DNA from: Glaciecola sp. MH2013
GTDB lineage: Bacteria > Pseudomonadota > Gammaproteobacteria > Enterobacterales > Alteromonadaceae
Assembly: GCF_015595035.1 (NCBI RefSeq)
Contig: NZ_JADNRN010000002.1
Location: 262,647 to 326,646, forward strand
Direction of reading: 5' to 3'
DNA length: 64,000 nt
Both the position numbers and the translations under genes were made by a program. This document shows positions 5,942-49,514 of the stretch, piece after piece. The notes under the pieces are model-generated. The model had not been told where the DNA came from. It saw only the letters and a list, made by a program, of their open reading frames with translations, and made no database searches. The number at the start of each line of letters is the position of its first letter. Position 1 is the first letter of the stretch.

Positions 5942-6412
5942 AATGAGTTGTTAGGCTCTTTTAATAAATTGGCATTGTCATCATGATTGGTGGCATTGTC
6001 TATTTATTGCTCAGTAGGGGCTGTAGCGCTAGATAGCTTGATTTTTTAATCATCGCTTTTTATATGCCTGTCTTTAAGATTTTACCTTCTAATTTTATTT
6101 TTGCTCTTTTGTGAAGGATAAAAAATCAATTAAAATCAATGCTATATGTGTTTTTTGTTCACTGCCAATCTCCTGCTAATTATATGGTTTTTTAGTTTTA
6201 ACTGATCATTTGTGTCAATGCACAAATTATTTCGATCGATCTAAAAAGCATCTACGTAAAACTCTACTAATATTAGACGGCGACTTGCTCGTTTCGGGAA
6301 AACTAGCATCCGTAGTCGTAGCGTAATTCAGCGGTCAGCGCTTGAGTTAGTCATTAGCGCTGTCGCAAAGCAGTTAACACACGATTTTAGTATCTATAAA
6401 GAGGAAAACTTA

Positions 6413-29122: not shown

Positions 29123-30154
29123 CTATAAGTTAACTTTCCACAGCATATCGTTAACTTGGGTAATTTCTATATTACAGCCCAATATTTGCTTAATAACGGC
29201 AATATTCGTTGTTGTGTGTAAGCTTGGTTTTGTTGTTGTAAAACTGCCGCTCCCAGCGATAGCAATTAAGATAAGCAACTGGTCGGCGAGATACTCTTCT
29301 ACGGCGGCTTTGGCATGTATGAACTTATTTACTCGTCCCACAGCACGTTTGGCAACTTTCTCTGATGATAAGCCATGCTCGCCAACAACCTCAAATATAC
29401 TACGATGAGTTTGGCTTTGAATGCTAAGCTGGAAGCTGTTACCAGGGCCAGGAGAATCTATCTGGTGAACTTGATTTAAGGCGTTCTGCCAACCAAGAAG
29501 CTTCTGAGCCGTGGCAATTTCTCTTTGGCCTATGCTGACTGGCAATAAACTCACCAAGGCATCAAGAGAACAGTTGTCTATATCGTTAGCGAAGTCGCCA
29601 CCCGAATCACTTAAGAAAAAAGGCTTGAGTGTTACAGATGGCTTCACATTAAGTTGCCATTTACCGCCGCCAGCAGGATAGAATCCCAGTTTTGAAGTAC
29701 TGACGCGACAATTTACCCCCATACCTTTTATTAAGGGCAAATATGATTGCTCGAAAAAGCTTAATGAAGGAGACATACCATTGTGTGTGCCGCCCTCAAA
29801 TACGACTGTTGAACTTTCTTTTGCCAAGGATAACACTGGTAAAATGGTCTGGCAGACCAATGTGGTACTTCCGGCGCTGCCAATAGCAAATCGATAATTC
29901 CCTGGTTTAACAGTGCGTGGTGAGAACCGAATTCGAGTAGCTCCCAGTTCCACACCTTCTGTTATAGCATCAGAAACCTCTTGTGCTGCCAAAACAGAAG
30001 TAAGGTGCTGACGTAATAGTCCAGGCTTTTTCCGACCAGCACGAATATTTACTAATTCAATATTCTGCTGGGTAAACATCGATAAAGTCAGGGCTGTTCT
30101 TAGCACCTGACCACCACCTTCTCCTTGAGCACCATCAATTATCATATAGTCCAT
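29123..30154 (-). CDS. rtcA: RNA 3'-terminal phosphate cyclase
   Basis: MDYMIIDGAQGEGGGQVLRTALTLSMFTQQNIELVNIRAGRKKPGLLRQHLTSV matches the RtcA N-terminus; 343 aa. Confidence 0.9.
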   Translation of the reverse strand: MDYMIIDGAQGEGGGQVLRTALTLSMFTQQNIELVNIRAGRKKPGLLRQHLTSVLAAQEVSDAITEGVELGATRIRFSPRTVKPGNYRFAIGSAGSTTLVCQTILPVLSLAKESSTVVFEGGTHNGMSPSLSFFEQSYLPLIKGMGVNCRVSTSKLGFYPAGGGKWQLNVKPSVTLKPFFLSDSGGDFANDIDNCSLDALVSLLPVSIGQREIATAQKLLGWQNALNQVHQIDSPGPGNSFQLSIQSQTHRSIFEVVGEHGLSSEKVAKRAVGRVNKFIHAKAAVEEYLADQLLILIAIAGSGSFTTTKPSLHTTTNIAVIKQILGCNIEITQVNDMLWKVNL

Positions 30155-30172
30155 TTTAACTCCTTATAACTA

Positions 30173-31396
30173 TTAACCTTTTACACAAACAATTTGCTTC
30201 AAGGTATAAACGACTTCAACAAGATCCTTCTGTGCTTCCATAACCTTTTCGATGTCTTTGTATGCGTGTGGTATCTCGTCTATGACTGATTCGTCCTTCC
30301 TACATTCAACACCTTCGGTCGCAGCAATTTGATCTTTCACATTGTAAATCTTCTTGGCTTTAGTTCTCGACATCACACGACCAGCACCGTGGCTGCAGCT
30401 ATTAAAGCTTTCTGGATTTCCCAAGCCTCTTACGATGAAAGAGCGAGCGCCCATACTTCCTGGAATGATCCCCATTTCGCCTTTTTCAGCCCTTACAGCC
30501 CCTTTTCTGGTAACGTAGCATTCTTTGCCAAAGTGACGTTCGCGCGAAATATAATTATGGTGACAATTTACAGCAAGCTCAGCAGTCGAAAATGGCACTG
30601 GCAACTGTTTTCGTAACGCAGCTATTGCATTGAACATCATAACTTCACGATTTTTCGCTGCGAAGTCTTGAGCCCACTCTACGGCTTCAACATAGTCGTT
30701 GAAATAGTCGCTTCCCTCCTCAAGGTAAGCCAAGTCCATATCCGGCAGGTTTATTTGATGGCGCTGCATTTCTTTCTTCGCTAATTCAATAAAATAGCTA
30801 CCAATGCGGTTTCCAACACCGCGACTACCTGAGTGAAGCATTATCCACACAGCATCATTTTCATCTAAACAAAGCTCCAAAAAGTGATTCCCTGTTCCCA
30901 TCGTGCCAAGGTGTTTAACGTTGTTACTTTTCTCGATCGCCGGGTGCTTGGCGCAGATCCGTTCAAAGCGAGCTTGCAACTTCAACCACTCTCCGGCAAC
31001 AAGGTCTGGAATGTTATGCCAAGCACCTCTATCTGCTCGCCCTCGACCACTTGTTCTACCATGGGGAACGGCTGCCTCAAAAGCGTGCCTAATTGCAGAT
31101 AAGTTATCAGGCAACTGGCTAGCCTTTAGGGTTGTTTTAGTTGCTACCATGCCGCAACCAATATCAACACCAACAGCAGCTGGTATAACAGCATCAACAG
31201 ATGGAATAACACTCCCAATCGTTGCGCCCTTGCCTAGATGTACGTCTGGCATCACTGCAATGTGCGAATGTACCAGTGGCATTGATGCTATATTTTTTAA
31301 TTGCTGCTGAGCTTTTTCTTCAAAAGGGACTCCCTTAGTCCACGCTTTGATTGGTGCGCTTCCTTCATTCTCTATCACGTTGTAGTTCTTACACAT
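30173..31396 (-). CDS. rtcB: RNA-splicing ligase RtcB
   Basis: 407 aa; ...KAWTKGVPFEE...HIAVMPDVHLGKGATIGSVIPS...GTMGTGNHF...HSGSRGVG...HGAGR metal- and GMP-binding motifs. Confidence 0.95.
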   Translation of the reverse strand: MCKNYNVIENEGSAPIKAWTKGVPFEEKAQQQLKNIASMPLVHSHIAVMPDVHLGKGATIGSVIPSVDAVIPAAVGVDIGCGMVATKTTLKASQLPDNLSAIRHAFEAAVPHGRTSGRGRADRGAWHNIPDLVAGEWLKLQARFERICAKHPAIEKSNNVKHLGTMGTGNHFLELCLDENDAVWIMLHSGSRGVGNRIGSYFIELAKKEMQRHQINLPDMDLAYLEEGSDYFNDYVEAVEWAQDFAAKNREVMMFNAIAALRKQLPVPFSTAELAVNCHHNYISRERHFGKECYVTRKGAVRAEKGEMGIIPGSMGARSFIVRGLGNPESFNSCSHGAGRVMSRTKAKKIYNVKDQIAATEGVECRKDESVIDEIPHAYKDIEKVMEAQKDLVEVVYTLKQIVCVKG

Positions 31397-31423
31397 TATA
31401 ATTTCCTTAAATATTCTTTTTTA

Positions 31424-32578
31424 TCAAGCTATGTTGACGGTGCCATTCATTAGGCCTTCCAAGCCACCGTAAACAGTCAAGCTATCAATTCTTTCAGCCA
31501 CCTTTTCAAGGGCTTCGAGCTCCTTTAGCCGCATCAATGTTGGGTTGTTTTCCATGACTTTTGCGGTGTTATGCAAGCTTCTTGTTGCAGAGGTTTCTTC
31601 ACGTCTTTTTATTACGTTTGCCTCTGCCGCTTTTTGCGCTTCGACTACCTGATTCAATATTGCTTTCATCTCACCGGGCAAGATGATGTCTTTCACTCCA
31701 ACACTTACAAGTGATACACCAACATCTGCTAGCCGCTCGAATGCCAGTTCTTTAACTGTCTCATTCACGTACAATTTATCTAACAAAATATCATCCAAAG
31801 ACTTAGTGCCGACGGCTTCCCTCAATGCTAACTGCAGTGCCTTATAAATAAAGTCATCTACTTTATCGACACTACGTGCTGCTAACTCGGCATCATCTAC
31901 TTTGATACTTGCGCTTAAATTAATTCGCAAACTCACTCTGTCTTTGCTCAAAATTTCTTGCCCAGAAATCTCAAGCAATTGAGTTCTACAATCAAAAGAC
32001 TTCAATTCAATGTCGTGATTAAACTGCCAAAACCCATGTTGACCAGGAGATAGCTTTCGCAGCAATTGACCATTTACATAAAGTAAGCCGATATGATTTT
32101 TGTCTACATTCAAATCAGCAATTGGTTTAACTGCTACGGTGCGCTCGCTTCTAATGAGACGTGACGCTGCATTGGCACCAGCTCTGTTGACTAGAAAAAG
32201 CGTTTTATCATCAACATCGATACTTTCATCAATAGAAATTTTTTCTACCCTTATATCGCCAGCATCTTTCCAAAGATATAGATGCTCACTTGGCGCCACG
32301 ATACCTCTGAGTAAATCGTCAACGTAAAGCAAACCCACTTCTGTACTTTTTAGCTTCCAATGAGATATATGCTCTGCGAATACTGTTTGATTACGATATA
32401 AGCGTTCAGCGTTTTTTTCGGAAAAGAACAGGGTATTGATGTCAAAATAGATAAACTCAAATTCATTCTTGATGTCCCAGATTCTGTGTCTTCCTGGTTT
32501 TATTACGCTGTTAAACTGTTGATTTTTGTATGCCAAAACTCTTTGGTTTTCTGCTACTACTAGTGTTTTTATGAACAT
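31424..32578 (-). CDS. cytoplasmic SPFH/band-7 (slipin-like) domain protein, first gene of the rtc operon
   Basis: C-terminal half has the SPFH core and coiled coil (...GVKDIILPGEMKAILNQVVEAQKAAEANVIKRREETSATRSL...). N-terminal roughly 200 aa holds an internal duplication (VGLLYVDDLLRGIVAPSEHLYLWKD / IGLLYVNGQLLRKLSPGQHGFWQFN) and no TM helix. 27 nt upstream of rtcB on the same strand. Confidence 0.7.
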   Translation of the reverse strand: MFIKTLVVAENQRVLAYKNQQFNSVIKPGRHRIWDIKNEFEFIYFDINTLFFSEKNAERLYRNQTVFAEHISHWKLKSTEVGLLYVDDLLRGIVAPSEHLYLWKDAGDIRVEKISIDESIDVDDKTLFLVNRAGANAASRLIRSERTVAVKPIADLNVDKNHIGLLYVNGQLLRKLSPGQHGFWQFNHDIELKSFDCRTQLLEISGQEILSKDRVSLRINLSASIKVDDAELAARSVDKVDDFIYKALQLALREAVGTKSLDDILLDKLYVNETVKELAFERLADVGVSLVSVGVKDIILPGEMKAILNQVVEAQKAAEANVIKRREETSATRSLHNTAKVMENNPTLMRLKELEALEKVAERIDSLTVYGGLEGLMNGTVNIA

Positions 32579-32759
32579 TAAAAAATTCCTTATTTAGTCC
32601 TCTTTGAAGAGGGGGTTAGTAAGTGTTAAGTACTTGTTCGATAAGGGCCTGAAACATAACAACCACGGGGAGCGTCCTGCTTGCCATAGCGCATTTGTTC
32701 TTGGCGTTTACCCAACATTGGTAATCACAACTTACTAACGCTTAGTTACTTATCATTGT

Positions 32760-32831
32760 ATAAAGGATGGGAATTGAACCCATAACCCTCGAATTAAAAA
32801 TTCGATGCTCTACCAATTGAGCTACCTGTAT
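32760..32831 (-). ncRNA. tRNA-like element A (72 nt; Lys-UUU-like anticodon loop; AU-rich acceptor stem; no CCA)
   Basis: Minus-strand read ATACAGG-TA-GCTC-AATTGGTA-GAGC-A-TCGAA-TTTTTAA-TTCGA-GGGTT-ATGGG-TTCAATT-CCCAT-CCTTTAT gives a full cloverleaf with G18G19 and a TTCRANY T-loop; one acceptor mismatch; A1:U72. Confidence 0.75.
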
Positions 32832-32898
32832 TTAAGGAAGGATTCGAACCTTCGCCAATAGCCCTATGCTATTGCTCTATCCTCTGAGCTACTTAAAT
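32830..32898 (-). ncRNA. tRNA-like element B (69 nt; non-canonical anticodon loop CATAGGG with A33; 3-nt variable loop)
   Basis: ATTTAAG-TA-GCTC-AGAGGATA-GAGC-AATAG-CATAGGG-CTATT-GGC-GAAGG-TTCGAAT-CCTTC-CTTAAAT; perfect 7-bp AT-rich acceptor; overlaps element A by 2 nt. Confidence 0.7.
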
Positions 32899-32901
32899 GT
32901 T

Positions 32902-32970
32902 TATTAAGATGGGACTCGAACCCATGACCTTCGAAAAAATTCGATGCTCTTCCTCCTGAGCTACTTAATA
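32902..32970 (-). ncRNA. tRNA-like element C (69 nt; anticodon arm collapsed to TCGAA-TTTT-TTCGA, 4-nt loop)
   Basis: TATTAAG-TA-GCTC-AGGAGGAA-GAGC-A-TCGAATTTTTTCGA-AGGTC-ATGGG-TTCGAGT-CCCAT-CTTAATA; same T-stem as element A; cannot decode. Confidence 0.7.
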
Positions 32971-33060
32971 TCTGTTTGATCAGGTATACGCATTCGCAGA
33001 GCTCAGCGCACCGGGGTGATGTTTTGAATCACACCCACTTAATCAGACGAATAGGTATTT

Positions 33061-33076
33061 ACAAGTCACGTGCCAG
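33061..33076 (-). promoter_or_regulatory. putative sigma-54 (-24/-12) promoter for the tRNA-like, SPFH, rtcB, rtcA transcript
   Basis: Minus strand reads cTGGCACgtgacTTGTa: a perfect -24 TGGCAC with a -12 TTGT (consensus TTGC) at correct spacing. It lies between divergent rtcR and the operon, as in the RtcR-dependent enterobacterial rtc promoters. No other GG-N10-GC candidate in the intergenic region. Confidence 0.35.
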
Positions 33077-33211
33077 CTTTTACTTTTATTTTAAATTTGT
33101 AGTTAAGTTATTGTTTTAATTTACTTAAGTATGTTTTTTTGTGACTTTCGTAGGTTTTTAATTGAAATTCAAAGAATAAAAAAGTACTGTTTTGGATATT
33201 AAAGTATCTAT

Positions 33212-34825
33212 ATGGATAGTGTTGTGAAAGATGTAGTTGTTGTTAGTTTGATTGGCACACAATTAGATTATGTAGGTAAGAGAGTTGACCGATGGGCCAA
33301 GTGGCGACCTAACGTCAGCCTCTGCAGCCAAGATGATTTGGTGATAAATCAGCTTCACCTTTTGCATGATAACCATAGTAATCGTCTCGCTAACGATGTC
33401 ACCGTCGACATTGAATCAGTCTCTCCAGAAACCGAAGTTAGTCTGCATAGTGTTAATTTTCAGAATCCATGGGATTTTGAAGAAGTTTACGCGAAACTGT
33501 TTGATTGGTGCCTTCAGCAAGATTTTGATACCGACAAAAATGACTATTTATTCCATATAACAACAGGGACACATGTTGTTCAGATATGCAGTTATTTACT
33601 TACCGAAAGTCGCCACTTCCCAGGTCGTCTCATTCAGACATCACCTGATCATAACAATAAGAACAAATCGATTGGTCGGATACAAATTATCGATTTAGAT
33701 CTATCTAGGTATGATCAACTCGCGACGAGATTTGATGTTGAACACCAAGAAGGTAAAGAGTTCTTAAAAGGGGGCATTGAAACCAAAAATAAAGATTTTA
33801 ATAATCTCATTGGGCAAATTGAGAAAGTGGCGATTCGCTCAAAAGATCCGATGTTACTCACCGGACCTACAGGTGCAGGAAAGAGTCAGTTAGCTACGCG
33901 AATATTTCAGCTAAAAAAGAAACGTTCAATGCTGAAAGGCACGCTAGTGTCGGTGAACTGCGCGACCTTGAAGGGTGAAAATGCTATGGCCGCATTGTTT
34001 GGCCACACAAAGGGCGCTTTTACTGGCGCTTTAAAAGCGAGGGATGGGTTTTTACTTACTGCGAATGAGGGGGTTCTTTTTCTAGATGAAATAGGTGAGC
34101 TTGGTTTGGAAGAGCAAGCCATGCTGTTACATGCGATTGAAAACAAGAGCTTTCATCCTGTTGGAAGTGATGCAGTAGTTAACAGTGGTTTTCAACTCAT
34201 TGCAGGCACGAATAAAAATCTGAAGGAGGAAATTAAAAAAGGTGCTTTTCGAGAAGATTTGCTTGCGAGAATAAACCTTTGGACATACGAACTACCAGCT
34301 CTTAAAGATAGGAAGGAAGACATTCCTGCAAATGTTGATTATGAGATTGAGTTGTATTCCCAAAAGTCGGGGCATCGAGTGCAGTTCAATAAGGAAGCTA
34401 AAAGTCGTTTTATTGGCTTTGCAGTATCTAATAAAGCCACATGGTCTGGAAACTTCAGAGATTTAAGCTCGGCAATAACACGGCTTTGCACCTTGGCAGA
34501 TTCATCAAGAATTACTATTGCAGATGTTGAAGACGAGATTGAGAAATTAACGCGCGCTTGGAGTTCATCGGGTGAACAAACTCACACTGATATTTTAAAT
34601 AGCTATTTATCAACAGAGCAGATTCAGCAACTTGATAAGTTTGATGCACAACAACTGAGTTATGTTTTGGCGGTTTGCCAGCGACACACTAGCATGGCAT
34701 CTGCCGGCAGAGAGTTGTTTGATGTTAGCCGAACATTTAAATCTCAACCGAATGATTCAAGTCGTTTACAAAAGTATTTGAATAAATTTGGTTTAAAGTG
34801 GAGAGATATCCGAAGTATCGATTGA
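33212..34825 (+). CDS. rtcR: sigma-54-dependent transcriptional activator RtcR (CARF, AAA+, HTH)
   Basis: 537 aa. N-terminal CARF-like VVVSLIGTQLDYVGKRVDRWAKWRPNVSLC; Walker A GPTGAGKSQLA; GAFTGA sigma-54 contact motif; near-colinear with E. coli RtcR as recalled. Confidence 0.9.
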   Translation: MDSVVKDVVVVSLIGTQLDYVGKRVDRWAKWRPNVSLCSQDDLVINQLHLLHDNHSNRLANDVTVDIESVSPETEVSLHSVNFQNPWDFEEVYAKLFDWCLQQDFDTDKNDYLFHITTGTHVVQICSYLLTESRHFPGRLIQTSPDHNNKNKSIGRIQIIDLDLSRYDQLATRFDVEHQEGKEFLKGGIETKNKDFNNLIGQIEKVAIRSKDPMLLTGPTGAGKSQLATRIFQLKKKRSMLKGTLVSVNCATLKGENAMAALFGHTKGAFTGALKARDGFLLTANEGVLFLDEIGELGLEEQAMLLHAIENKSFHPVGSDAVVNSGFQLIAGTNKNLKEEIKKGAFREDLLARINLWTYELPALKDRKEDIPANVDYEIELYSQKSGHRVQFNKEAKSRFIGFAVSNKATWSGNFRDLSSAITRLCTLADSSRITIADVEDEIEKLTRAWSSSGEQTHTDILNSYLSTEQIQQLDKFDAQQLSYVLAVCQRHTSMASAGRELFDVSRTFKSQPNDSSRLQKYLNKFGLKWRDIRSID

Positions 34826-34848: not shown

Positions 34849-37398
34849 CTATTTCACTAGTCCATCTACAAAGTTTTTGATATCTGTATTACTGAATGGT
34901 TTAGATAGCAGTTCTACATTTTCAAAACCTTCCTTTTTGATGCCCTGAAGTTCACTATATCCTGTAACGAAAATGAATGGGATGCACAGTTCTTTAAGGT
35001 GCTTGGCGATTGAAATGCTGTTTTCGCCTCCTAAGTTAACATCAAGTATGGCAAACGAGATGCTTTCCTTATTGATGATTTTAATAGCGTCAGCAGAGCT
35101 AGCGGAGACGAATACCTTTTTAACACCCAGAGCATAGAGTGTGTCTTCAAGGTCTAAGGCAATAATCATATTGTCTTCGACAATCAACGCACTAGATAGA
35201 GCATTTCTTGCAGTAGGTGAGCTAAGTGTGTGTTCTGATGAATTTTCGTAAGGTTTTGGTTGCGCATCTGTTGTTACTACAAATTTACTGGGGACACTCA
35301 GTGTTACATCTATTCCATTGCCATGCGCTATTACATCTGCGGTTCCATTTAAGTCGAAGGGAATGGAGCGACTTATAATAATCGAACCGAAACCTTTTTT
35401 AGTAGCCAGTTCATTTTCATAACCAGATTCCTGCCAATCAATCGTTAAATCCTTGTTGTGCGATAAACTCCATTCAATTTTTATTTGTCCACGATCGTTT
35501 CGCAAAGCGCCATGTTTAACAGCGTTTGTTACTAACTCGTGAACAACCAATGTAAGGGTAGTGTACGCCTTAGGTAACAGATTTACCGATGGGCCTTCAA
35601 TAATCACATTGTTTTCTATGTTTTCAGTAAAAGGGTTTAACTCTGTTTCAATAAGCTCTTGAAGTGGTGCATGGCTCCAATTGCGTTTAGTAAGGTGGTT
35701 TTGTGCAACCGCAATAGCTTCAATTCTCCCTCCAAGCACTTGCTTAAACTCAGAGATATCTACTGCATTACTGGCCGTTTTTGATATCACCGAGCTAATC
35801 AGACCCAATATGTTTCTTACTCTATGATTCAGCTCGTGAATCAGCATATCTTGCTGTTGTTGTGATTCTCTTATCAAGCGCTCACGTTCATCAATGTTAC
35901 GAATAACAATTTCCATAAGCATTTGTCGGAAAAGCTTTGCTAAGCCAATTTCTTTTTCTAACCAAGGCGCACTGAAGCCTTTCCTTAGCTCTTGCCAAGC
36001 GGCAAAACTTTTTCGTGGTGTTAATCTTGATCCATTTGGGCCCAGACTAACTGGTTTTTCTGGGTTGCCAGCCCATGATATTGCTTGAGTCTCTTCTTTG
36101 CGAAGAAAAATCATGAAGTCTTTGGGATGTCTCGAAATTGGTATTGCGAGCATACCTGCGTAGCGTTCAGAAACGGTCAGTTCTGAGTCTAGAAATGAAG
36201 CTAAATTATCAGAGTAAACTACCTCATTAGTAGGGTAATTATTTAATTCCTTTAGAATAAGCTGAATATCCTCATCACTGATTTCAGCTCCAGTTTGAGC
36301 CATTTTTTTATCGACCCACAAAACAGTGCTATCAGACTGAATGAGCTCATGAAAGCTATCGATATGCGGTACTAAATTGTTATACACAGTCTCTTCATTA
36401 TTCATTGCAGACATAATACTGACTTGAAGGCTTCGAGCTCTGTCAGTATCGACCATACTTGCATTGCGAAGTCGGCCCGCAAGTTCCAATGAAAATACTT
36501 CTCCGTATACCTCTATTATCGACCGCAATTCTAAACTCATATATTTCGCACTATTGTGATGGCAAGCAAACAGCCCCCACAATTCCCCATCAACCACAAT
36601 ACTTAATGAGAAACTAGCTCCTACACCCATATTCTTCAAATACTCAATATGTATCGGCGATACTGCTCTGAGTGAACTAAGAGAAAGGTCGATTGCTTCT
36701 TCGTTACTGTCGTTCGAACCTATTATGTCGATCGTTTCGGCGTCTACATCTTCAATTTGGCGCGTTAGGTTCTTTACGTATAAGCGCCGGGCTTGTTTGG
36801 GGATGTCAGAGGCTGGGTAGCGTAAACCGAAGAAGCTTTCCATTTCGTGAGTTTTATTTTCTGCAATAACTTCGCCTGTACCATCGTTGTGAAAGCGATA
36901 AAGCATGATCCTATCGTAGCCTGTTAGTTGACTAATTTGTTCGGTCGCATGCACAAACAAACTCTGCATTGAATCGGTTTGAGAAAGAGATCTCAGGGTA
37001 TCTCTAAAACTGGGAAGTGACCTTCGTTGTTGTACAGGTTGGTGATATTCAAATTCAACTATTACTAATTCGCCGCTTTTGTGAATACTGATATCGTAGG
37101 ATGTTTTTCGGTCAAAAATAAACTCAGCAAATACGCGTTGTGTTTGCTCTGGTGCAAGCTCTTGAGCGAAGTGTTTAATTTCAGTGAATATTGAAGGGGA
37201 AATTAATTGCTCACTTGGTATTTTGAAGCACTCCTCGATACTCAAATTAGTAAATTTCTCGATATTTTTTGAGCAATAAGCCAAACGCCAATCTTGCGTA
37301 AAGGCAATAAATCCGCCATACGCCTGTATCTTTCCGACTAAGTGAATCGCTTCTTTATCGCAGCTAGATAAGTCGACATTTTTATATGAGTTACTCAT
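34849..37398 (-). CDS. bphP: bacteriophytochrome with HWE/HisKA_2-type kinase and C-terminal receiver
   Basis: N-terminal SSCDKEAIHLVGKIQAYGGFIAF (biliverdin Cys plus IH..G.IQ motif); GAF/PHY; H-box HELNHRVRNILGLISSV; C-terminal REC (ALIVEDNMIIALDLEDTL...FAILDVNL). Start taken at ATG 37398 (MSNSYKN...), which overlaps the upstream kinase stop as ATGAGTAA; the ORF also opens at 37458. Confidence 0.8.
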   Translation of the reverse strand: MSNSYKNVDLSSCDKEAIHLVGKIQAYGGFIAFTQDWRLAYCSKNIEKFTNLSIEECFKIPSEQLISPSIFTEIKHFAQELAPEQTQRVFAEFIFDRKTSYDISIHKSGELVIVEFEYHQPVQQRRSLPSFRDTLRSLSQTDSMQSLFVHATEQISQLTGYDRIMLYRFHNDGTGEVIAENKTHEMESFFGLRYPASDIPKQARRLYVKNLTRQIEDVDAETIDIIGSNDSNEEAIDLSLSSLRAVSPIHIEYLKNMGVGASFSLSIVVDGELWGLFACHHNSAKYMSLELRSIIEVYGEVFSLELAGRLRNASMVDTDRARSLQVSIMSAMNNEETVYNNLVPHIDSFHELIQSDSTVLWVDKKMAQTGAEISDEDIQLILKELNNYPTNEVVYSDNLASFLDSELTVSERYAGMLAIPISRHPKDFMIFLRKEETQAISWAGNPEKPVSLGPNGSRLTPRKSFAAWQELRKGFSAPWLEKEIGLAKLFRQMLMEIVIRNIDERERLIRESQQQQDMLIHELNHRVRNILGLISSVISKTASNAVDISEFKQVLGGRIEAIAVAQNHLTKRNWSHAPLQELIETELNPFTENIENNVIIEGPSVNLLPKAYTTLTLVVHELVTNAVKHGALRNDRGQIKIEWSLSHNKDLTIDWQESGYENELATKKGFGSIIISRSIPFDLNGTADVIAHGNGIDVTLSVPSKFVVTTDAQPKPYENSSEHTLSSPTARNALSSALIVEDNMIIALDLEDTLYALGVKKVFVSASSADAIKIINKESISFAILDVNLGGENSISIAKHLKELCIPFIFVTGYSELQGIKKEGFENVELLSKPFSNTDIKNFVDGLVK

Positions 37399-39634
37399 AG
37401 TGATTGCTCTTTTGGGTTGGAGTATTTGCTCGCATTTGCTTGGCTGAATGAATGTCATTTACGAACGTGGCTTCAAGTAATTCACATACCTGGTTTGATG
37501 AAGGTAGGAGCGGAATAGTTCGACAGGTACGCTGCCAAACAGTTGGTTGCTTGAAAACGGTATCAGTTAACACACAAATCGGAATAACAATACGTTTCGC
37601 CGTAAACTCATTAAACAACAGGGGTATGCTTAATCTTGGAAGTTCATAATCAATTAGAAGAAGTTGAAATGACTCTACCGTAAGTATTTCAGGTATGTCG
37701 GCAGCCTTATCGACAAACATCATCTTGAATGCTTGGGTTGTATTGAAAATTTGCAGTAAGGATGAAATGAGTTTTTCATTTTCTGATGCGACTAATATAT
37801 TAATCGGGTTTGCAAAAGAGCATTGTGTAGCAATGTCTTCCAATTTCTGAGCAAGTTTTTGCTTCTCTGCTTGGTCAATCGATTTGCTTACAAACATTTG
37901 ATACAGATTTTCGGCTATTTCACTTGGGCTTAAAGGTTTGGAAAGTACTAGATCCGTAACCTTTCTGCATTCTGATATAAGCTCGTCATCTACTGAGGCA
38001 GTGATGGCGACAATAACAGCTGTTGATTTGCTATCCTTTATTATCTTCGAAGCTTCCACGCCCGACATAATGGGCATGTGAATATCCATCCAAATAACAT
38101 CAAAATGTCGCTCGGCCGCCTTGTGAATTGCTTCTTTTCCGTTAGAGGCAAAGTCGAAGTCAGAGAAGCCTAGTTGTTTTAATGACTCGTGAAGCACCAC
38201 TTTATTTATTTCATTGTCATCAACAATTAAATGAGAAATCGGATTTGTTGTTGCATATGTTAACATTAATGTAGAGTAGTCGATGGGGTATTCACTTAGC
38301 GTATAAGACGCTCGTAAAACGTCGCTACGGACTGCAATTTGGATTAGCTCGCTCGGTAGAATTGGTTTATACAGTACATGCCAATCAGCGAATTCTTTAT
38401 ATTGATTATTGTCGAGTAAAACACAATTCGCTTTCGCTCGAAGGGCGTCTTTTAATTCATTGCTTTCCTGAAGTGTACCTAGCTCAGCAAAGTCGATGAT
38501 AAGTAAATCGGTTTGTTCGGAATGATTTTCTGAAAGCAGACTTTGCGTTGAATCATACTGTTGAACGTTAATATTCCAATTTGAAAACAGTGAGCGAATT
38601 GATTCGGTTGCTGTTCCCTTTGAGGAAACTAGCTTGATTATTGTTTTATGTTTATGCTCAGCGGTAAATCGAGGTATCCCTTTTAGTCGCACCTTTTTGA
38701 AAGTGAGGTCAAAAAAGAGTTGTGTTCCAAAGTTCTCTTTGCTCTTAGCTTGAATCTTTCCTCCCATCATTTCGACTATTTCTTTGCTAATGTTGAGGCC
38801 AAGACCAGAACCTCTTGCACGAGAATTTTGGCTTGAATTCACTTGATAAAAGGGTTCAAAAACGGCTGCAAGATCTTTCTCAGGAATCCCCACGCCCGTG
38901 TCGGATACTAAGAATCTTACTGAGAGCTCTTCTGCATTTTCCTGTCTGAATATGACCCACACAGAAACGTTACCGTGGTCAGTGAATTTGAAGGCGTTAC
39001 CTATCAAGTTACTGAGCACCTGATACAAGCGTTGAGAATCTGATTTTACGCCAAGCTCAATCAGCCTAGAATCGAAATGGAGTTGAAGTTCGATGTTTTT
39101 CGATTGTGCCGACTGGGTAAATATTCTGACTACGTTTTCGCAAACTTCTAAGAGTCTGAATGGCTCTAAACGCAAAGACATTCCATTTGGAGAGTTATTC
39201 GAGAGATCTATTGCATCAGAAATAACCGTCATCAAAGCACGCGAAGAGACTCTAATTTGGTCCAAGTATCGTTGTATTTTTGGTGATACTGTTTCTTTTT
39301 CAATAACTTCAATTAAACCATTGATGCCATGTAATGGTGTTCGAAGGTCATGACTCACTTTTGCCAAATGCTTCGCTTTATCTTGCGATATTTCTTTCTC
39401 TTGCTCAATTAAACTGCTGTACTTGTCATCATTGCTTTTGATGCTCTGAACATGTAGGTACTGGATGATTATCAAAACCAAAGTTACAAGGATTATCAAG
39501 ATGGACGCTATCACAGGTAACCAATCTGGCTGTTGTGTTTGTATGAATGTATTGAAGCTTGCGAAGGTGAATAAAAGCCACAGTGTTATTCTCACGACAC
39601 TAACTCCTCTTGGGTAACCACCTTCTTGTTGCAT
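37391..39634 (-). CDS. hybrid sensor histidine kinase/response regulator (two TM helices, HisKA, HATPase, two REC)
   Basis: SHDLRTPLHGI H-box; G-box GSGLGLNISKEIVEMMGG; REC LIVDDNEINKVVL...DVIWMDIHMP. Start uncertain (ATG 39634 chosen; ORF extends to 39706 and overlaps bphO). Confidence 0.8.
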   Translation of the reverse strand: MQQEGGYPRGVSVVRITLWLLFTFASFNTFIQTQQPDWLPVIASILIILVTLVLIIIQYLHVQSIKSNDDKYSSLIEQEKEISQDKAKHLAKVSHDLRTPLHGINGLIEVIEKETVSPKIQRYLDQIRVSSRALMTVISDAIDLSNNSPNGMSLRLEPFRLLEVCENVVRIFTQSAQSKNIELQLHFDSRLIELGVKSDSQRLYQVLSNLIGNAFKFTDHGNVSVWVIFRQENAEELSVRFLVSDTGVGIPEKDLAAVFEPFYQVNSSQNSRARGSGLGLNISKEIVEMMGGKIQAKSKENFGTQLFFDLTFKKVRLKGIPRFTAEHKHKTIIKLVSSKGTATESIRSLFSNWNINVQQYDSTQSLLSENHSEQTDLLIIDFAELGTLQESNELKDALRAKANCVLLDNNQYKEFADWHVLYKPILPSELIQIAVRSDVLRASYTLSEYPIDYSTLMLTYATTNPISHLIVDDNEINKVVLHESLKQLGFSDFDFASNGKEAIHKAAERHFDVIWMDIHMPIMSGVEASKIIKDSKSTAVIVAITASVDDELISECRKVTDLVLSKPLSPSEIAENLYQMFVSKSIDQAEKQKLAQKLEDIATQCSFANPINILVASENEKLISSLLQIFNTTQAFKMMFVDKAADIPEILTVESFQLLLIDYELPRLSIPLLFNEFTAKRIVIPICVLTDTVFKQPTVWQRTCRTIPLLPSSNQVCELLEATFVNDIHSAKQMRANTPTQKSNHYE

Positions 39635-40188
39635 AAGGCTCTGAGAGCGGAAAAAGAGTCCAATGCACCAGCAAGTACTTGTTGATAGTGCTCTTCTGTG
39701 GCGCACAGGGAATGAATATAGTTAATTGTGGTGCGGAAGCTATCTATTTTTTGGTGGCCATAGCAATCGTAAAAACGAGTAGCCTTTTGTAATCCGAGTG
39801 TTTTTTTAACTTTTTTACCGATAATCATACCACCAAGAGAAGAGCCCTCAGCGACGTACAGCACTCCTAGGGAAAAGTGTCTAGATGCCGTCTTCTTAGC
39901 GAGTGCTAATTTTGGCAGTGTTGTTCCGCCTAATTCCTGTAAATCTGCCTCCAGCAATCCAGTTTTTACTTTTATTAACGGTAAAGACGAGTGATTGAAA
40001 TATTCGTGTAAATGCGTGGACTCCGCGGCGGCAAACCATTTATGCATAATTTGCATAACCGCTATATAGCTTTCAATAGTTAACGTTGTTTCCATCAAAC
40101 TTCTTAACAAAGGACTGCTATCCAATGCTGTGTGGGCAGAGTGCGTATCTGTTTTTAGCCTTTGATGTGTTGTATTAAAATAATTCAA
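39592..40188 (-). CDS. bphO: heme oxygenase (biliverdin-producing, BphO/HemO-like)
   Basis: 198 aa; N-terminal LKTDTHSAHTALD fits the heme-oxygenase proximal-His helix; heads the phytochrome operon. Confidence 0.65.
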   Translation of the reverse strand: MNYFNTTHQRLKTDTHSAHTALDSSPLLRSLMETTLTIESYIAVMQIMHKWFAAAESTHLHEYFNHSSLPLIKVKTGLLEADLQELGGTTLPKLALAKKTASRHFSLGVLYVAEGSSLGGMIIGKKVKKTLGLQKATRFYDCYGHQKIDSFRTTINYIHSLCATEEHYQQVLAGALDSFSALRALCNKKVVTQEELVS

Positions 40189-45576: not shown

Positions 45577-46587
45577 ATGGAAACGATGGAGTCTAACAGA
45601 ATTGCATGGATCGATATGGCTAAAGGCCTTACGATCTTTTTGGTTGTTTTCCACCATGCTTTTATGGGTGCCAAAAATCTTGGCTTGGTTAGCTCCTCCG
45701 TTTTCGAACTCTATGAGTTGTCCCGTCCTTTTCGTATGCCGCTATTCTTTTTAGTTGCCGGTTTATTTACCAAGAGTGCGCTACAAAAGCCTTTCACCGT
45801 ATTTGCTAGGCAAAAGTTACTGTATTTTCTGTATTTCTATGTACTGTGGAATACCATCTCAGTCGTTATAAGAGCGTCATTATCTTCATATACGAATAAC
45901 CAAGTTGAATATAGTGATGTGTTTTATCTACTTTGGGAGCCGACTTTTAATCTATGGTTCTTATACGGATTGCTTCTCGCCTTTTTCAGTCTGTATGTCT
46001 TAATGCGATTTGGAGGCGTAGTAATACTCACAAGTTTTTGCTTGCTATGCATCTCTTATGAAGTGAGTGGCTTGGCGAGTCTTCCATTCATTTTTAAGGC
46101 AACGATTATGCTGTTTCCCTTCTTCGCAATTGGAACAATCTTTTCTGCTGCATTAATAGAATATATCGACCAAAAAGCCAATTTAGTCGTTTTTATTTTA
46201 CTCAGCATTCTTTGTATAAGTGCTGATTTCTATATCAAAAACGAGTATTGGGATAGCGTTTTTTATTATCTATCCGCGTTGGTCTACGCCATCACGATGT
46301 TAACGCTGATGAAGCGCCTACAGAAAACTGTTTTGAGAGGCGTTTTATTATACATCGGGCAACATTCACTGAGTATTTATCTCATGCACTTTCTACCCGT
46401 TGCAGCCGCTAATTTTATGCTTATTCGCCAACTTGATATGTCGCAACCGCTGCTTACATCAACGATATCCAGCGTAGTCACTGTTGCACTTTGTATTTGG
46501 GGTTTCAAAGTGCTTAATAGCAATAAATACTTGCGATACTTAGTGAAAAGCCCGCTGTTAAGGGAGCGTCAGCAAGCGGATTTGTAG
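45577..46587 (+). CDS. acyltransferase-3 (OpgC/OafA-like) family membrane protein
   Basis: About 10 TM helices; N-terminal IAWIDMAKGLTIFLVVFHHA typical of acyltransferase_3. Confidence 0.7.
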   Translation: METMESNRIAWIDMAKGLTIFLVVFHHAFMGAKNLGLVSSSVFELYELSRPFRMPLFFLVAGLFTKSALQKPFTVFARQKLLYFLYFYVLWNTISVVIRASLSSYTNNQVEYSDVFYLLWEPTFNLWFLYGLLLAFFSLYVLMRFGGVVILTSFCLLCISYEVSGLASLPFIFKATIMLFPFFAIGTIFSAALIEYIDQKANLVVFILLSILCISADFYIKNEYWDSVFYYLSALVYAITMLTLMKRLQKTVLRGVLLYIGQHSLSIYLMHFLPVAAANFMLIRQLDMSQPLLTSTISSVVTVALCIWGFKVLNSNKYLRYLVKSPLLRERQQADL

Positions 46588-46684
46588 TATGCCAGCAAGC
46601 AGTGGCGAGTGGAAAATAACTTGCCAATACGAATTTGTTCATTTAACATCCGCGCATTAATCAATGCGAACGCCAAAGCATTTT

Positions 46685-46720
46685 TGCGCTCAGCTAAGTA
46701 AAGTGCTCAGCTAAGTCAAG
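46685..46720 (+). repeat. tandem direct repeat (2 x about 17 bp, GCTCAGCTAAGTmAAG) upstream of rtcB2
   Basis: TGCGCTCAGCTAAGTAAAG TGCTCAGCTAAGTCAAG TGCGCAG; adjacent near-palindrome CGCATTAATCAATGCG at 46651-46666. Confidence 0.5.
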
Positions 46721-46963
46721 TGCGCAGTTGATGAGCTCGTATAAAACACCCATCTCTACACTAAACTGGAAAGGAGTACATAAAATGCAAAACACATCAT
46801 TATCCTTTTCAGGTCTTGATCAGTAGACGCACCAAGCTCTCGGTAAACGAGGTACTGTGTTCTAACACTATAATTAGCTTCATTTAACGACTGAAGTTTC
46901 GTGCGAAATTAAAAGACCTTTCAAACATATTTCAAATATTATCCTCTTGAAAGGAAAAACATT

Positions 46964-48124
46964 ATGGGCAATTCCGTCCAAAAATTATCAAATAATGTCA
47001 GCCTTGTTGCGTCTACGAATACGTGGATAGAGAGTCTGGCGATACAACAGATGTTAAAAACATCCGAACTTAGAGGTATGCGAGCGGTTGCTGGCATGCC
47101 CGATTTACATCCAGGAAGAGGCTACCCGATTGGTGCTGCTTTCTTCAGTACGAGGCGTATTTATCCAGCTTTAGTTGGTAACGACATTGGTTGCGGTATG
47201 GCGCTTTGGCAAACAAGTGCGAAGGTAAGCAAGGTTAACCTTGATAAGTTAGCAAAGAAATTTGAGCATGTAGAACAAGCGCTGGATGCATCATGGAAAG
47301 ATTTAATCGCTAGTCGAAAGAAGACCAAGGACATTGAAAGCAGCCAATTCGATCATGCCCTAGGCACAATTGGTGGCGGCAATCATTTTGCAGAGTTTCA
47401 AGCGATTGATGAGATTTATGATGCTAAAGCAATTGAAGAGCTTGGGTTGAGCAAGAAACACTTACAACTGTTAGTTCACTCCGGTTCTCGAGGTCTTGGT
47501 CAGTCTATACTTGTCGAGCATATTACTGAGTACAATCACGATGGTTTGTGCGAGTCGCAAGTCGACTTTACCGACTATATGCATAAGCATGATGAGGCTG
47601 TGCGCTGGGCAGAACTCAATCGCGAATGTATTGCGCTTCGCTTTTTGAAGGCAATTAGAGCTAAGGGGCAATGTTCACTGGATGTAAACCATAACTTGGT
47701 GTCGGCCAAAATCATTGATGGTCACCATGGTTGGTTGCATCGTAAAGGGGCTACGCCAAGCGATCAGGGTTATGTTGTTATACCGGGTTCTCGAGGTGAC
47801 TACAGCTATTTAGTTAAGCCAACGCCCTCTGAAAATAGTGAGTTGAGTCTATATTCTCTTGCTCATGGGGCGGGTAGAAAGTGGAAGCGTGGAGAGTGCC
47901 AAGGTCGCTTAAGTCATAAGTACAAACGTGATGACCTCTATCGTACTGAACTAGGCAGCAGGGTGGTATGTGGTAACAAGGAGCTTTTATACGATGAAGC
48001 GCCTCAAGCATATAAAAAGTGTGAAACAGTTATTGCCGACATGCTTGATGCGGGCTTAATCGAATTGGTTGCGCGCCTGCGACCTGTACTCACCTTCAAA
48101 ACTAATGGGAGCTGCTCCTCATGA
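46964..48124 (+). CDS. rtcB2: RtcB-family RNA ligase paralog (RtcB2)
   Basis: 386 aa; [17 protein letters not shown]...[10 protein letters not shown]...HSGSRGLGQ...AHGAGRK RtcB motifs. 4-nt ATGA overlap with prfH. Confidence 0.85.
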
Positions 48125-48735
48125 TGCTATTGCAATTATCAGCAGGACAAGGGCCAATCGAGTGTTGTAAAGCACTGGGTTTGGCTCTGGCCAAAATAGA
48201 AAAAGACGTAGCGCAACAGCAAATGAAAATGGAGCTGATTAACAGAGTACCTGCAGCTGAAAAGGACTGTTACAAATCCATTTTACTGCAGTTTGAGGGC
48301 GCTTCGGAACAGGTTATTAGTTATCTTCAAAGTTGGCAAGGAGCGCTCCTTTGGGTTTGCCAAAGTCCATATCGGCCAAAGTATAAACGTAAAAATTGGT
48401 TTTTCAGTGGTGAGGTATTTGAACTCAATAGTAGCGAGTTCGATCCATGTATTGAATACAAGGCATGCCGAGCATCTGGGGCTGGTGGTCAACATGTTAA
48501 TACCACTGACTCGGCTGTTCGTGCTACTCACTTGCAAACGGGATTAAGTGTTCGAAGCGAGAGCGAACGAAGTCAACATGCTAATAAGAAAATGGCACGT
48601 ATACTCTTATATCAAAAACTTGAAGAACAAAAACAAATCAACCAAACTCAGGATGAGAAACAGCGTTGGATGCAACACTGGGAGCTGCAACGTGGCAATC
48701 CCGTGAGAAGGTTCAAAGGGAGTAAATTTACTTAG
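48121..48735 (+). CDS. prfH: peptide chain release factor H (RF-H)
   Basis: 204 aa; GGQ motif in [29 protein letters not shown]; short RF2-like without the full codon-recognition domain; coupled to rtcB2. Confidence 0.85.
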
Positions 48736-48833
48736 ATAAGAATAAGAAGGCAGTTAAGGAGCCCCGTAAGTAGGGCTCCGAACTGTGTTTTGACACTAAT
48801 GCTGAGATGAATTAGGTCTGATTTAAGCCCGAC

Positions 48834-49514
48834 TTAGGCCAGTTTTGCAACCAACTTTTCGGCTAAGGCTTTAGATGATGCCGGATTCTGGCCTGTTAAT
48901 AATAGTCCATCTTCAACAGTATATTCAGCCCAATCATCTGCTTTACTGTATATAGCGCCAAGTGCTTTTAGGCCATCTTCAATGAGCACAGGAACAATAT
49001 CGCTTAGCTCAACCGCAGCTTCTTCGCCGTTAGTGAAGCCGGTTACTTTTTTTCCTGCAACAAGTGGCGTGCCGTCTTTGGCTTTGGCGTTTAAAAGCAC
49101 CGCGGGTGCATGACAAACTGCTGCGACAGGTTTTGAGTTTGCATAAAAGTTCTCAATGAGAGCAATCGAGTTCTTATCTACACGCAAGTCCCACAGTGGA
49201 CCGTGGCCGCCCGGGTAAAAAATTGCATCAAAATCATCAGCCTTTACTTCACTTAGTTTAACCGTGTTAGCAAGTGCTTGCTCTGCTTCTTTGTCACTTT
49301 CAAAGCGGCGAGTATCATCCGTGAGGAAATCATCTAAGCTGCTTTTTGGATCAAGAGGTGGTTGCCCGCCAGCAGGTGAGGCAAGTGTTAGTTCAAAGCC
49401 TTTGTCTTTCATTACATAGTATGGCGCGGCTAATTCTTCTAGCCAAAAACCTGTTTTCTCTCCGGTATCGCCAAGTTCGTCATGTGACGTTAGTACAACA
49501 AGAATCTTTTTCAC
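48834..49514 (-). CDS. DJ-1/PfpI-family (type 1 glutamine amidotransferase-like) protein
   Basis: 226 aa; nucleophile elbow AAVCHAP. Confidence 0.85.
   Translation of the reverse strand: MKKILVVLTSHDELGDTGEKTGFWLEELAAPYYVMKDKGFELTLASPAGGQPPLDPKSSLDDFLTDDTRRFESDKEAEQALANTVKLSEVKADDFDAIFYPGGHGPLWDLRVDKNSIALIENFYANSKPVAAVCHAPAVLLNAKAKDGTPLVAGKKVTGFTNGEEAAVELSDIVPVLIEDGLKALGAIYSKADDWAEYTVEDGLLLTGQNPASSKALAEKLVAKLA

Follow-up and report, generated by a model that had tools for sequence, protein, structure and literature searches.

The RtcB2-PrfH pair is a characterized ribosome-repair pair, known from Escherichia coli ATCC 25922 (Protein Data Bank (PDB) 7SA4; PMC9304027, PMC9223846, PMC13166195). 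A longer form of its release factor, PrfH-CT of Capnocytophaga gingivalis (PDB 9MOR/9MQ4; PMC12829566), carries a basic C-terminal tail of ~26 residues and rescues intact non-stop ribosomes. In Pseudomonas aeruginosa, PA5471 (ArmZ) has been described as a representative of UPF0027/PRK09588 and an RtcB-like RNA ligase. Its gene shares a transcript with PA5470 (prfH), and both are controlled by PA5471.1, a 13-aa leader that reports on ribosome function through its own translation (PMC3516279, PMC12057347). This leader mediates induction by ribosome-targeting stress, a control known in P. aeruginosa only (PMC12057347). Here we describe the rtcB2-prfH locus of Glaciecola sp. MH2013 within a 64,000-nt stretch of contig NZ_JADNRN010000002.1, hereafter the window, together with the leader upstream of rtcB2, which belongs to the PA5471.1 family.

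The rtcB2-prfH pair and its products

The pair occupies two open reading frames (ORFs):

46964..48124, plus strand: rtcB2, 386 aa, RtcB2-type 3′-phosphate/5′-OH RNA ligase (NF007153, TIGR03073)
48121..48735, plus strand: prfH, 204 aa, release factor H of the short (EcPrfH-type) subfamily (TIGR03072)

Both frames lie exactly where an earlier note on this DNA had placed them, and the junction TCATGATG bears out the ATGA overlap described there if prfH starts at 48121. The overlap is then 4 nt; from a second ATG at 48124 it is 1 nt. The nr entry 'peptide chain release factor H [Glaciecola sp. MH2013]', to which the window PrfH is 100% identical, uses the second ATG and has 203 aa. Since nr already holds the annotated protein, the gene pair is of a known, annotated kind, and it is an ordinary copy of the characterized ribosome-repair pair. 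As in E. coli ATCC 25922, rtcB2 precedes prfH and the stop and start codons overlap; the genomic neighborhoods of the two pairs differ, and the Glaciecola pair is known from sequence alone. The E. coli operon is located just 3′ of dinB-yafNOP, which includes the gene for the ribosome-dependent mRNA interferase YafO. The earlier note also mentioned a Salmonella RtcB2-PrfH system, which was unconfirmed in the searchable RtcB2-PrfH literature, covering E. coli and Capnocytophaga.

The rtcB2 product scores 559 bits against NF007153/PRK09588 (cut-off 407) and 536 bits against TIGR03073 'release_rtcB' (cut-off 272). The other RtcB of the window, RtcB1 (30173-31396, minus strand), is 30% identical to it and reaches 176 and 142 bits on the same models, under both cut-offs. 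Among prfH-linked RtcB2 proteins of 75 loci, identity to the window protein ranges from 50 to 78%. Alignment to the RtcB structures of P. horikoshii and T. thermophilus equates D74, C77, N140, H141, H172, H243, and H301 with P. horikoshii D95, C98, N202, H203, H234, H329, and H404; H301 also corresponds to the catalytic His H294 of E. coli RtcB2. These seven metal-ligand and nucleotidyl-histidine residues are invariant among 76 prfH-linked RtcB2 sequences, in line with the intact metal- and guanosine monophosphate-binding motifs that had been noticed previously. With scores above the curated cut-offs, intact ligands and guanylylated His, and a position directly upstream of prfH, the protein has the features of the RtcB2 class, which is cluster 2 of PMC9304027.

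PrfH scores 245 bits on TIGR03072 'release_prfH' (IPR017509; equivalog cut-off 166.65) and falls far under each cut-off on the models for release factors RF1 and RF2 and for ArfB. RF domain 1 is absent, the RF2 profile being aligned only over positions 119-315, and the GGQ motif claimed for this 204-aa protein was found at residues 122-124 (G122-G123-Q124). Residues 1-203 align to E. coli PrfH (PDB 7sa4 chain 8, EcPrfH 1-201 of 204) with E=1.3e-54; this alignment, proposed earlier as a check, runs end to end at 47% identity between proteins of the same length. The alignment to C. gingivalis PrfH (CgPrfH; E=6e-38) covers chain residues 5-205 of 231. Like CgPrfH, the window protein has the rRNA-recognition domain (RRD) and the GGQ domain and a Trp at the position of Ec Arg181. 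However, PrfH-CT proteins are defined by a basic C-terminal helical tail and a length of 225-250 aa, and the 204-aa window PrfH has no such tail, ending one residue past the EcPrfH-aligned region. Matching EcPrfH in length and without the CgPrfH tail, it therefore belongs to the short, EcPrfH-type subfamily of PMC12829566. By model scores and the end-to-end EcPrfH match, the ligase is not of the RtcB1 type and PrfH is not an RF2 fragment, the two outcomes that would have spoken against the earlier note; its central reading, that release factor H is translationally coupled to an RtcB2-type ligase distinct from the RtcR-regulated RtcB1/RtcA, is thus supported.

To compare the ribosome contacts, the PrfH contact residues from PMC9304027 were mapped onto an alignment of 77 PrfH sequences. 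In the window PrfH, G11, P12, S53, R85, R90, K91, N92, H186, R191, and GGQ are conserved. The pocket for the 3′-phosphate of cleaved A1493 (Ec G10-P12, R83, H86, R88, R189) keeps G11, P12, R85, R90, and R191, and the h18/S12 patch (Ec K89, N90) is identical (K91, N92). In the C1914 pocket (Ec R52, S53, R181, H184), S53 and H186 are identical, with K52 for R52 and W183 for R181; both are common family variants, present in 32/77 and 41/77 PrfH sequences, respectively. The window PrfH further differs from EcPrfH in Lys87 for His85 and Tyr88 for His86, and all four variants are seen elsewhere in the family.

The family-wide context was drawn from 80 related loci on one-genome-per-species contigs (best relative 63% identical; Glaciecola sp. 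MH2013 itself not included). The rtcB2 gene is directly 5′ of prfH in 79 of these, and the 75 intact pairs comprise 48 with the ATGA overlap, 22 with a 1-nt overlap, and 5 with a 2-5-nt gap (70/75 overlapping). This near-universal adjacency and overlap indicates that translational coupling of the pair is ancestral, as proposed by Baranov et al. 2006. The genes flanking rtcB2-prfH are not conserved between genomes, and a synteny search gave just weak LysR matches of 21-29% identity. Three loci (L030, L033, and L036) have an intact prfH preceded by partial tblastn matches to RtcB2 only; they may have an rtcB2 pseudogene or a frameshifted rtcB2, which would recall the E. coli K-12 deletion.

A conserved leader upstream of rtcB2

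A blastn comparison of the 400 nt upstream of rtcB2 with the related loci revealed a 25-nt block (46794-46818) that is 92-96% identical and located at a similar distance from rtcB2 in Pseudoalteromonas, Catenovulum, Paraglaciecola, Vibrio, and others, at loci whose RtcB2 proteins are just ~77% identical. The block falls within a leader containing a short upstream open reading frame (uORF), its own Shine-Dalgarno (SD) sequence, and four pairing segments, all on the plus strand:

46785..46826, plus strand: leader uORF of the PA5471.1 type, 13 codons, MQNTSLSFSGLDQ followed by a stop, with a good SD at 46770-46775
46766..46775, plus strand: segment 1, CTGGAAAGGA, holding the uORF SD; pairs with segment 2 in minimum free energy (MFE) and centroid folds
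46803..46817, plus strand: segment 2, TCCTTTTCAGGTCTT, within the uORF; complementary to segment 1 in its 5′ part and to segment 3 in its 3′ part (AGGTCTT)
46913..46924, plus strand: segment 3, AAGACCTTTCAA, with AAGACCT complementary to segment 2 and CCTTTCAA to segment 4
46947..46955, plus strand: segment 4, TTGAAAGGA, the rtcB2 SD region, paired to segment 3 in the default fold

Almost all loci have an equivalent uORF of 13-15 codons 5′ of rtcB2 (55 related loci), and such uORFs occur across gamma- and betaproteobacteria. The peptides read MTxTSxSFAGLxR in marine gammaproteobacteria, MQxLITLCRSRLA in Pseudomonas and relatives, and ...ALCRPFQD in enterobacteria. Further recurring blocks are the uORF SD ACTG(T/C)AAAGGAG, a downstream G(A/G)CCTGCCAAT, and the rtcB2 SD GGA(A/T)TGG. 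The leader blocks are complementary as 1:2, 2:3, and 3:4, that is, as mutually exclusive helices.

The core of the uORF is the nearly invariant 9-mer CTTTGCAGG, which is translated F-A-G in 31 leaders and L-C-R in 24, including that of P. aeruginosa PA14. Because one core occurs in two reading frames, the constraint acts on the RNA within a translated ORF, not on the peptide. The reverse arrangement, in which the uORF encodes a specific arrest or sensor peptide and the pairing is incidental, would be in keeping with the good conservation of ...SFAGL.R within the marine clade and with the many stall sensors (ErmCL, TnaC) that act via the nascent chain. We regard it as very improbable, since, besides the change of frame, third codon positions in the 9-mer are invariant while codons 2-6 vary freely, the complements of the 9-mer covary, and the substitutions Q3K and F4L in P. 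aeruginosa leave basal expression unchanged (PMC13041342).

A covariance model of the leader 5′ module (R1), built from 51 leaders with the window left out, gives a single match in the 64 kb on both strands, at 46762-46826 (47.4 bits, E=1.1e-13). The module (SD block, loop, and CCTTTGCAGGTC block) is matched over its full length. R1 also matches 12 loci outside its training set, including E. coli, where a leader of this family lies between yafP and rtcB2 (47 bits). An Rfam search (E<=1) of 46300-49100 gave no match. A probe for the E. coli leader was at least 80% covered in 3,939 of 5,426 complete genomes, with no annotated feature over the leader, and the PGAP note on E. coli RtcB2 pseudogenes cites mexXY. 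The element that is in fact conserved upstream of rtcB2, the uORF-containing RNA switch at 46762-46955, is absent from the earlier note.

The three helices were examined by covariation in 49 aligned leaders, with the variable middle removed. Pairing across the family is 91% for helix 1:2, 87% for helix 3:4, and 97.4% for helix 2:3, and none of 500 column shuffles reached the values of the real alignment, either in covariation score or in percentage of paired cells. Compensatory changes are seen in helix 2:3, and helix 3:4 shows U-A/A-U/C-G covariation. For example, columns 58/106 hold U-A in 24 leaders, U-G in 15, and C-G in 8, and columns 116/160 hold U-A in 14, A-U in 8, C-G in 8, and U-G in 6. 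In the window, MFE and centroid folds of 46755-46975 contain helix 1:2 (CUGGAAAGGA/UCCUUUUCAG) and helix 3:4 (CCUUUCAA/UUGAAAGG, masking the rtcB2 SD). The duplexes of segment 3 with segments 2 and 4 have energies of -7.9 and -8.1 kcal/mol, respectively.

The effect of a ribosome on the uORF was modeled by placing a 30-nt footprint at each codon and refolding the leader. For the window the predicted helix probabilities (p) and SD accessibilities are as follows:

No ribosome: p(1:2) 0.99, p(2:3) 0.06, p(3:4) 0.92, SD accessibility 0.16
P-site codon 1: p(1:2) 0.00, p(2:3) 0.87, p(3:4) 0.08, SD accessibility 0.15
P-site codon 4: p(1:2) 0.00, p(2:3) 0.74, p(3:4) 0.23, SD accessibility 0.39
P-site codons 6 and later: p(1:2) 0.00, p(2:3) at most 0.04, p(3:4) at least 0.92, SD accessibility 0.15-0.16

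In the other 48 loci, only an early stall, at codons 1-4, makes the SD more accessible, by 0.106 on average vs 0.003 from codon 6 on; a gain of at least 0.05 occurs in 33 loci with an early stall vs 1 with a late stall (Wilcoxon p=8e-12).

The P. aeruginosa system, like the window, consists of a 13-codon leader ORF followed by an RtcB2-family gene and prfH. Primer sequences give the PA14 leader as CCGCAAAGGAGGTTACATCG ATG ATT CAG TTC TCT ACC CTT TGC AGG C and the start of armZ as CATGGATTGGATT ATG GGC (PMC13041342), and these carry the same segment 1, 2, and 4 blocks as the window leader. The SD block is GCAAAGGAGG in P. aeruginosa vs GGAAAGGAG in the window, and the in-ORF block is CCCTTTGCAGG vs CCTTTTCAGG; both systems share the SD-masking partner and an upstream promoter of the constitutive sigma-70 type. 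They differ in the frame in which the conserved block is read and in the leader-to-gene spacer (~249 nt in P. aeruginosa, 179 nt in the window). The P. aeruginosa RtcB2 homolog has also acquired a second role, as anti-repressor of MexZ, whereas no mexZ or mexXY is found in the window. A clinical deletion of nt 16-22, which makes expression constitutive, coincides exactly with ACCCTTT, the segment 2 half that is complementary to segment 1, and leaves GCAGG, the partner of segment 3, in place; this fits the helix model. In PA5471.1, an amber mutation at codon 3 is activating, and a cca mutant exerts its effect through codons 3-4 (PMC13041342), results that agree with the predicted early stall.

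Several related leaders depart from this arrangement. In Corallincola platygyrae, the leader model matches (58 bits, 5723-5786) directly 5′ of prfH (6001-6603) in a 12.6-kb locus (L028) with no rtcB2, giving a leader-prfH unit without a ligase. Comamonadaceae (L035, L038, L041, L042, L045, L051, L054, L067, L069) and Undibacterium (L055, L058, L070, L073) have uORFs of 19-20 codons that read MQKNTTSLWAGSAVAGL.. and MRLLQNLSPSLGLVF.. and are unmatched by R1. These leaders keep a segment complementary to the rtcB2 SD region (e.g. TCCGGTTTCAA / TTGAATCTGGA) and look like an analogous, sequence-divergent leader class. Enterobacterial leaders (Escherichia ruysiae L057, ~4700-4850; Klebsiella L063; E. 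coli) contain an insert of ~60-130 nt between segment 3 and the rtcB2 SD. This insert is repeated elsewhere in E. coli genomes, with a median of 6 matching places per genome, and looks like a REP-like element.

A probable stall-responsive leader and its alternatives

Upstream of the uORF, the following features were identified:

46621..46649, plus strand: predicted sigma-70 promoter of leader-rtcB2-prfH, TTGCCA-17 nt-TAACAT, then cc-GCGC (consensus scan)
46650..46670, plus strand: initial-transcribed box, the 'near-palindrome' of the earlier note, ccGCGCattaatcaatgcg
46688..46721, plus strand: 17-bp tandem duplication within the 5′ leader, copies 46688-46704 and 46705-46721, 16/17 identical

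The generic promoter and terminator scan showed no enrichment over shuffles, and the promoter is credible because the same signature recurs at other loci, not from the scan alone. The composite TTGnnn/16-18 nt/TAnnnT/0-2 nt/GCGC is present upstream of the uORF in 42 of 73 loci, with 0.27 expected in shuffles. Transcription from this predicted promoter would start near 46655-46658. A GCGCxC...TTCAAT box directly follows the -10 at most loci and across many genera, with an equivalent position in 42 loci; it may serve as start-site context, form a 5′ stem, or bind a protein.

The earlier note had proposed the 2 x 17-bp direct repeat and near-palindrome (46651-46720) as an operator of rtcB2-prfH, to which a repressor or activator would bind. 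The duplication is real, as are short palindromes at 46716-46731 and ~46652-46669; dimeric regulators can bind tandem repeats, and a LysR-type gene is located 0.9 kb downstream of prfH. However, the 17-bp unit occurs nowhere else in the window and at none of the 80 related loci, among which no close relative is represented. It lies at least 39 nt downstream of the conserved -10, inside an insertion that extends the distance from the -10 to the uORF to 135 nt, compared with 37-86 nt elsewhere. Being part of the transcribed leader and specific to this lineage, the repeat is unlikely to be an operator. The palindrome region falls on the box conserved as initial transcribed sequence, and neither the LysR gene nor the other flanking genes keep their place beside the pair in other genomes. 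An operator at this site is accordingly the least credible of the explanations considered here, and expression is most likely governed by the leader.

We consider it probable that 46621-48735 forms one unit in which a repair pair, identified by homology, is expressed under the control of a stall-responsive leader. This single transcription unit would consist of the sigma-70 promoter, a leader of ~300 nt, rtcB2, and prfH, with the constitutive-type promoter producing a leader-rtcB2-prfH mRNA. In the default fold, segment 1 (uORF SD) would pair with segment 2 and segment 3 with segment 4 (rtcB2 SD); rtcB2, its SD sequestered by helix 3:4, would therefore be poorly translated. A ribosome held on the first ~4 uORF codons, as would be expected of one with a damaged or drug-bound decoding center, would occupy segment 1, and the freed segment 2 could then pair with segment 3 and open the rtcB2 SD, while prfH would be translated by coupling to rtcB2 via the ATGA overlap. 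By homology, PrfH would enter the A site of a ribosome whose 16S rRNA is cut after A1493, read the 3′-phosphate end, and release the peptide, and RtcB2 would religate the 16S rRNA on the freed 30S subunit. The window leader would work as in P. aeruginosa, where stalling on the homologous leader induces the genes, and the natural trigger may be rRNA-cleaving toxins that cut 16S rRNA.

Similar switches are known from the ermC/ermB, msrD, and bmrCD attenuators, in which a stalled ribosome on a short uORF selects between alternative helices, one of which masks a downstream SD or forms a terminator. The window leader differs from the ermC-type attenuators in that its effective stall is predicted within the first ~4 codons and would be independent of the peptide, and in that its genes repair the ribosome, whereas those of the attenuators alter the drug target or pump the drug out.

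The leader probably acts on translation initiation, as no terminator is predicted. The published P. aeruginosa model for PA5471.1 proposes premature transcription termination instead, with the segment 3/4 hairpin as a terminator formed after complete leader translation (PMC13041342, PMC12057347), and an untranslated leader could in addition expose Rho entry sites. For the window we find termination in place of masking of the rtcB2 ribosome-binding site unlikely. No intrinsic-terminator-like site is found on the plus strand of 46588-46963, and helix 3:4, in the window and at most loci, includes the SD, ends 8-10 nt before the ATG, and has no U-tract. According to a 2025 review, the transcriptional mechanism has yet to be confirmed. 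Termination and SD masking are not mutually exclusive.

Several observations weigh against the proposed SD-masking switch and repair function. The P. aeruginosa literature describes transcription termination, in a mechanism called unconfirmed, and not SD masking, and the mechanism suggested for Glaciecola is read from its sequence and from homology. When the 3′ partner is moved by 1-3 columns, family pairing falls to 17-51%, a slide control that is inflated by the definition of the helices from the same sequences as were tested. Segments 3 and 4 of the window are out of register with the family alignment, and its helices 2:3 and 3:4 therefore rest on single-sequence folding rather than covariation. 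The folding z-score of the whole leader is just -1.67. At equilibrium, the change in SD accessibility in the window is modest, from 0.16 to 0.39 at best, and for a ribosome on codon 1 the fold predicts some pairing of segment 2 with the rtcB2 SD itself. In PrfH, Tyr88 (48382-48384) replaces Ec His86, a contact to the 3′-phosphate of cleaved A1493, and Tyr occupies this position in only 5 of 77 family members, with His in 69. Finally, no ribotoxin or immunity domain was found in the 54 Pfam-scanned proteins of the window, where several ORFs were matchless and short, immunity-sized ORFs lay outside the scans. The historical exposure to rRNA- and tRNA-targeting toxins that the earlier note read from the two modules thus gains no support from the window.

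Tyr88 could putatively still hydrogen-bond the phosphate. It was also considered as a sign of lost PrfH function and rejected, since Tyr recurs in 5/77 family members.

The lack of an E3-like toxin or immunity gene among the scanned proteins would also suit a different role for the pair, chiefly the general rescue of ribosomes stalled by drugs or stress and not defense against colicin-E3-type rRNases. Consistent with such a role, many ribosome-targeting agents act on the leader family in P. aeruginosa, PA5470 reportedly relieves macrolide (azithromycin) stalling (PMC12057347), and E. coli ykfJ is inducible by 4-azaleucine. However, EcPrfH is inactive on intact ribosomes in vitro (PMC9304027), and intact-ribosome activity has been tied to the PrfH-CT C-terminal tail (PMC12829566), which is absent from the window PrfH. 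Most of the residues that read the 3′-phosphate of cleaved A1493 are, moreover, conserved. General rescue as the main function is thus doubtful.

Genomic surroundings and meaning for the family

The window contains a second RNA-repair module upstream of the pair:

29123..34825, mixed strands: RtcR module, comprising rtcR, a sigma-54-like site, a tRNA-like array, an SPFH gene, rtcB1, and rtcA
33212-34825, plus strand: rtcR, NF038308 762 bits (cut-off 650), divergent from SPFH-rtcB1-rtcA
33060-33075, minus strand: sigma-54-like site, TGGCAC-N5-TTGT, 1 mismatch, facing the operon
31424-32578, minus strand: SPFH/Band-7 (HflK-like) gene, 384 aa
30173-31396, minus strand: rtcB1, RtcB Pfam 428 bits
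29123-30154, minus strand: rtcA, NF003246 381 bits (cut-off 352)

The sigma-54-like site is one of only two 1-mismatch sites in the window. With RtcR, RtcA, a canonical RtcB, and this site all present, both an RtcR-regulated ligase module and rtcB2-prfH are carried on this chromosome, as had been claimed. The distance given for them, within 15 kb, is approximate: 12.1 kb separate the end of rtcR from the start of rtcB2, but 15.6 kb separate rtcB1 from rtcB2. Both modules encode RtcB-family ligases with the same catalytic residues. RtcB1, unlike RtcB2, is linked to RtcA and controlled by a sigma-54 activator with a CARF-type sensor domain, and it fails the RtcB2 cut-offs; the substrates of E. 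coli RtcB1 are tRNAs, not 30S subunits (PMC9304027).

The SPFH/Band-7 gene is inserted between the promoter region and rtcB1-rtcA of the Rtc operon. Between the sigma-54-like promoter and SPFH-rtcB1-rtcA is a tRNA-like array (32758-32970, minus strand) of three head-to-tail elements, which is therefore inside the RtcR-controlled transcript. Two elements match the Rfam tRNA model with 70 and 59 bits, and weak, partial YrlA (Y-RNA-like) matches overlap. The array has AU-rich acceptor stems, no spacers between units, and one shortened anticodon loop, and there is no Rsr/Ro60 gene near it. Its units may be Y-RNA-like RNAs or decoy tRNAs.

The 12 kb between the two RNA-repair modules hold a bacteriophytochrome/histidine-kinase/heme-oxygenase cluster, an M12B metalloprotease, and an acyltransferase. 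The light-sensing cluster (34849-40188, minus strand) encodes a bacteriophytochrome (PAS-GAF-PHY-HWE kinase-receiver), a hybrid histidine kinase, and a heme oxygenase. The left part of the window is core chromosome, with gmk, spoT, trmH, and recG. A genomic island was considered for the rtcB2-prfH operon and rejected, as GC content is 0.43-0.45 in operon and flanks and no tRNA or integrase adjoins. A consensus scan predicted no plus-strand terminator after prfH; a minus-strand terminator-like hairpin (48661-48680) is located inside the prfH 3′ end, ~150 nt downstream of a convergent DJ-1/PfpI gene.

The gene pair itself is one more, already annotated member of a characterized family. A leader, ArmZ, and Pseudomonas all go unmentioned in the papers on the RtcB2-PrfH mechanism (PMC9304027, PMC9223846, PMC13166195, PMC12829566) and in the 2006 hypothesis paper, and no paper containing both 'ArmZ' and 'RtcB2' was found in the searchable literature, which lacked the primary 2009 report on PA5471.1. 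A 2025 MexXY review calls the leader control 'unique to MexXY' (PMC12057347). As far as this literature was searched, the leader family has gone unrecognized as a general feature of rtcB2-prfH, and earlier recognition is possible. The function papers are silent on how cells time the expression of RtcB2 and PrfH, and the stall-sensing leader of Pseudomonas has been treated as efflux regulation. The comparative data join these two literatures, show a constraint on RNA pairing and not on the peptide, and account for the clinical constitutive deletion.

On balance we lean towards the view that the PA5471.1-type leader is an ancestral RNA switch on most gammaproteobacterial and many betaproteobacterial rtcB2-prfH operons, those of E. 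coli and this Glaciecola among them, which would make the repair operon self-inducing, and that the MexXY induction circuit of P. aeruginosa is a late add-on to an older circuit for damage sensing and repair. If so, ribosomes unable to decode, whether through 16S rRNA cleavage or a drug-bound decoding center, would stall early in the uORF and thereby unmask the rtcB2 ribosome-binding site. This provides a model, with specific segments, for the sensing of decoding-center damage, and one open to test in E. coli, which carries the leader without any annotation of it.

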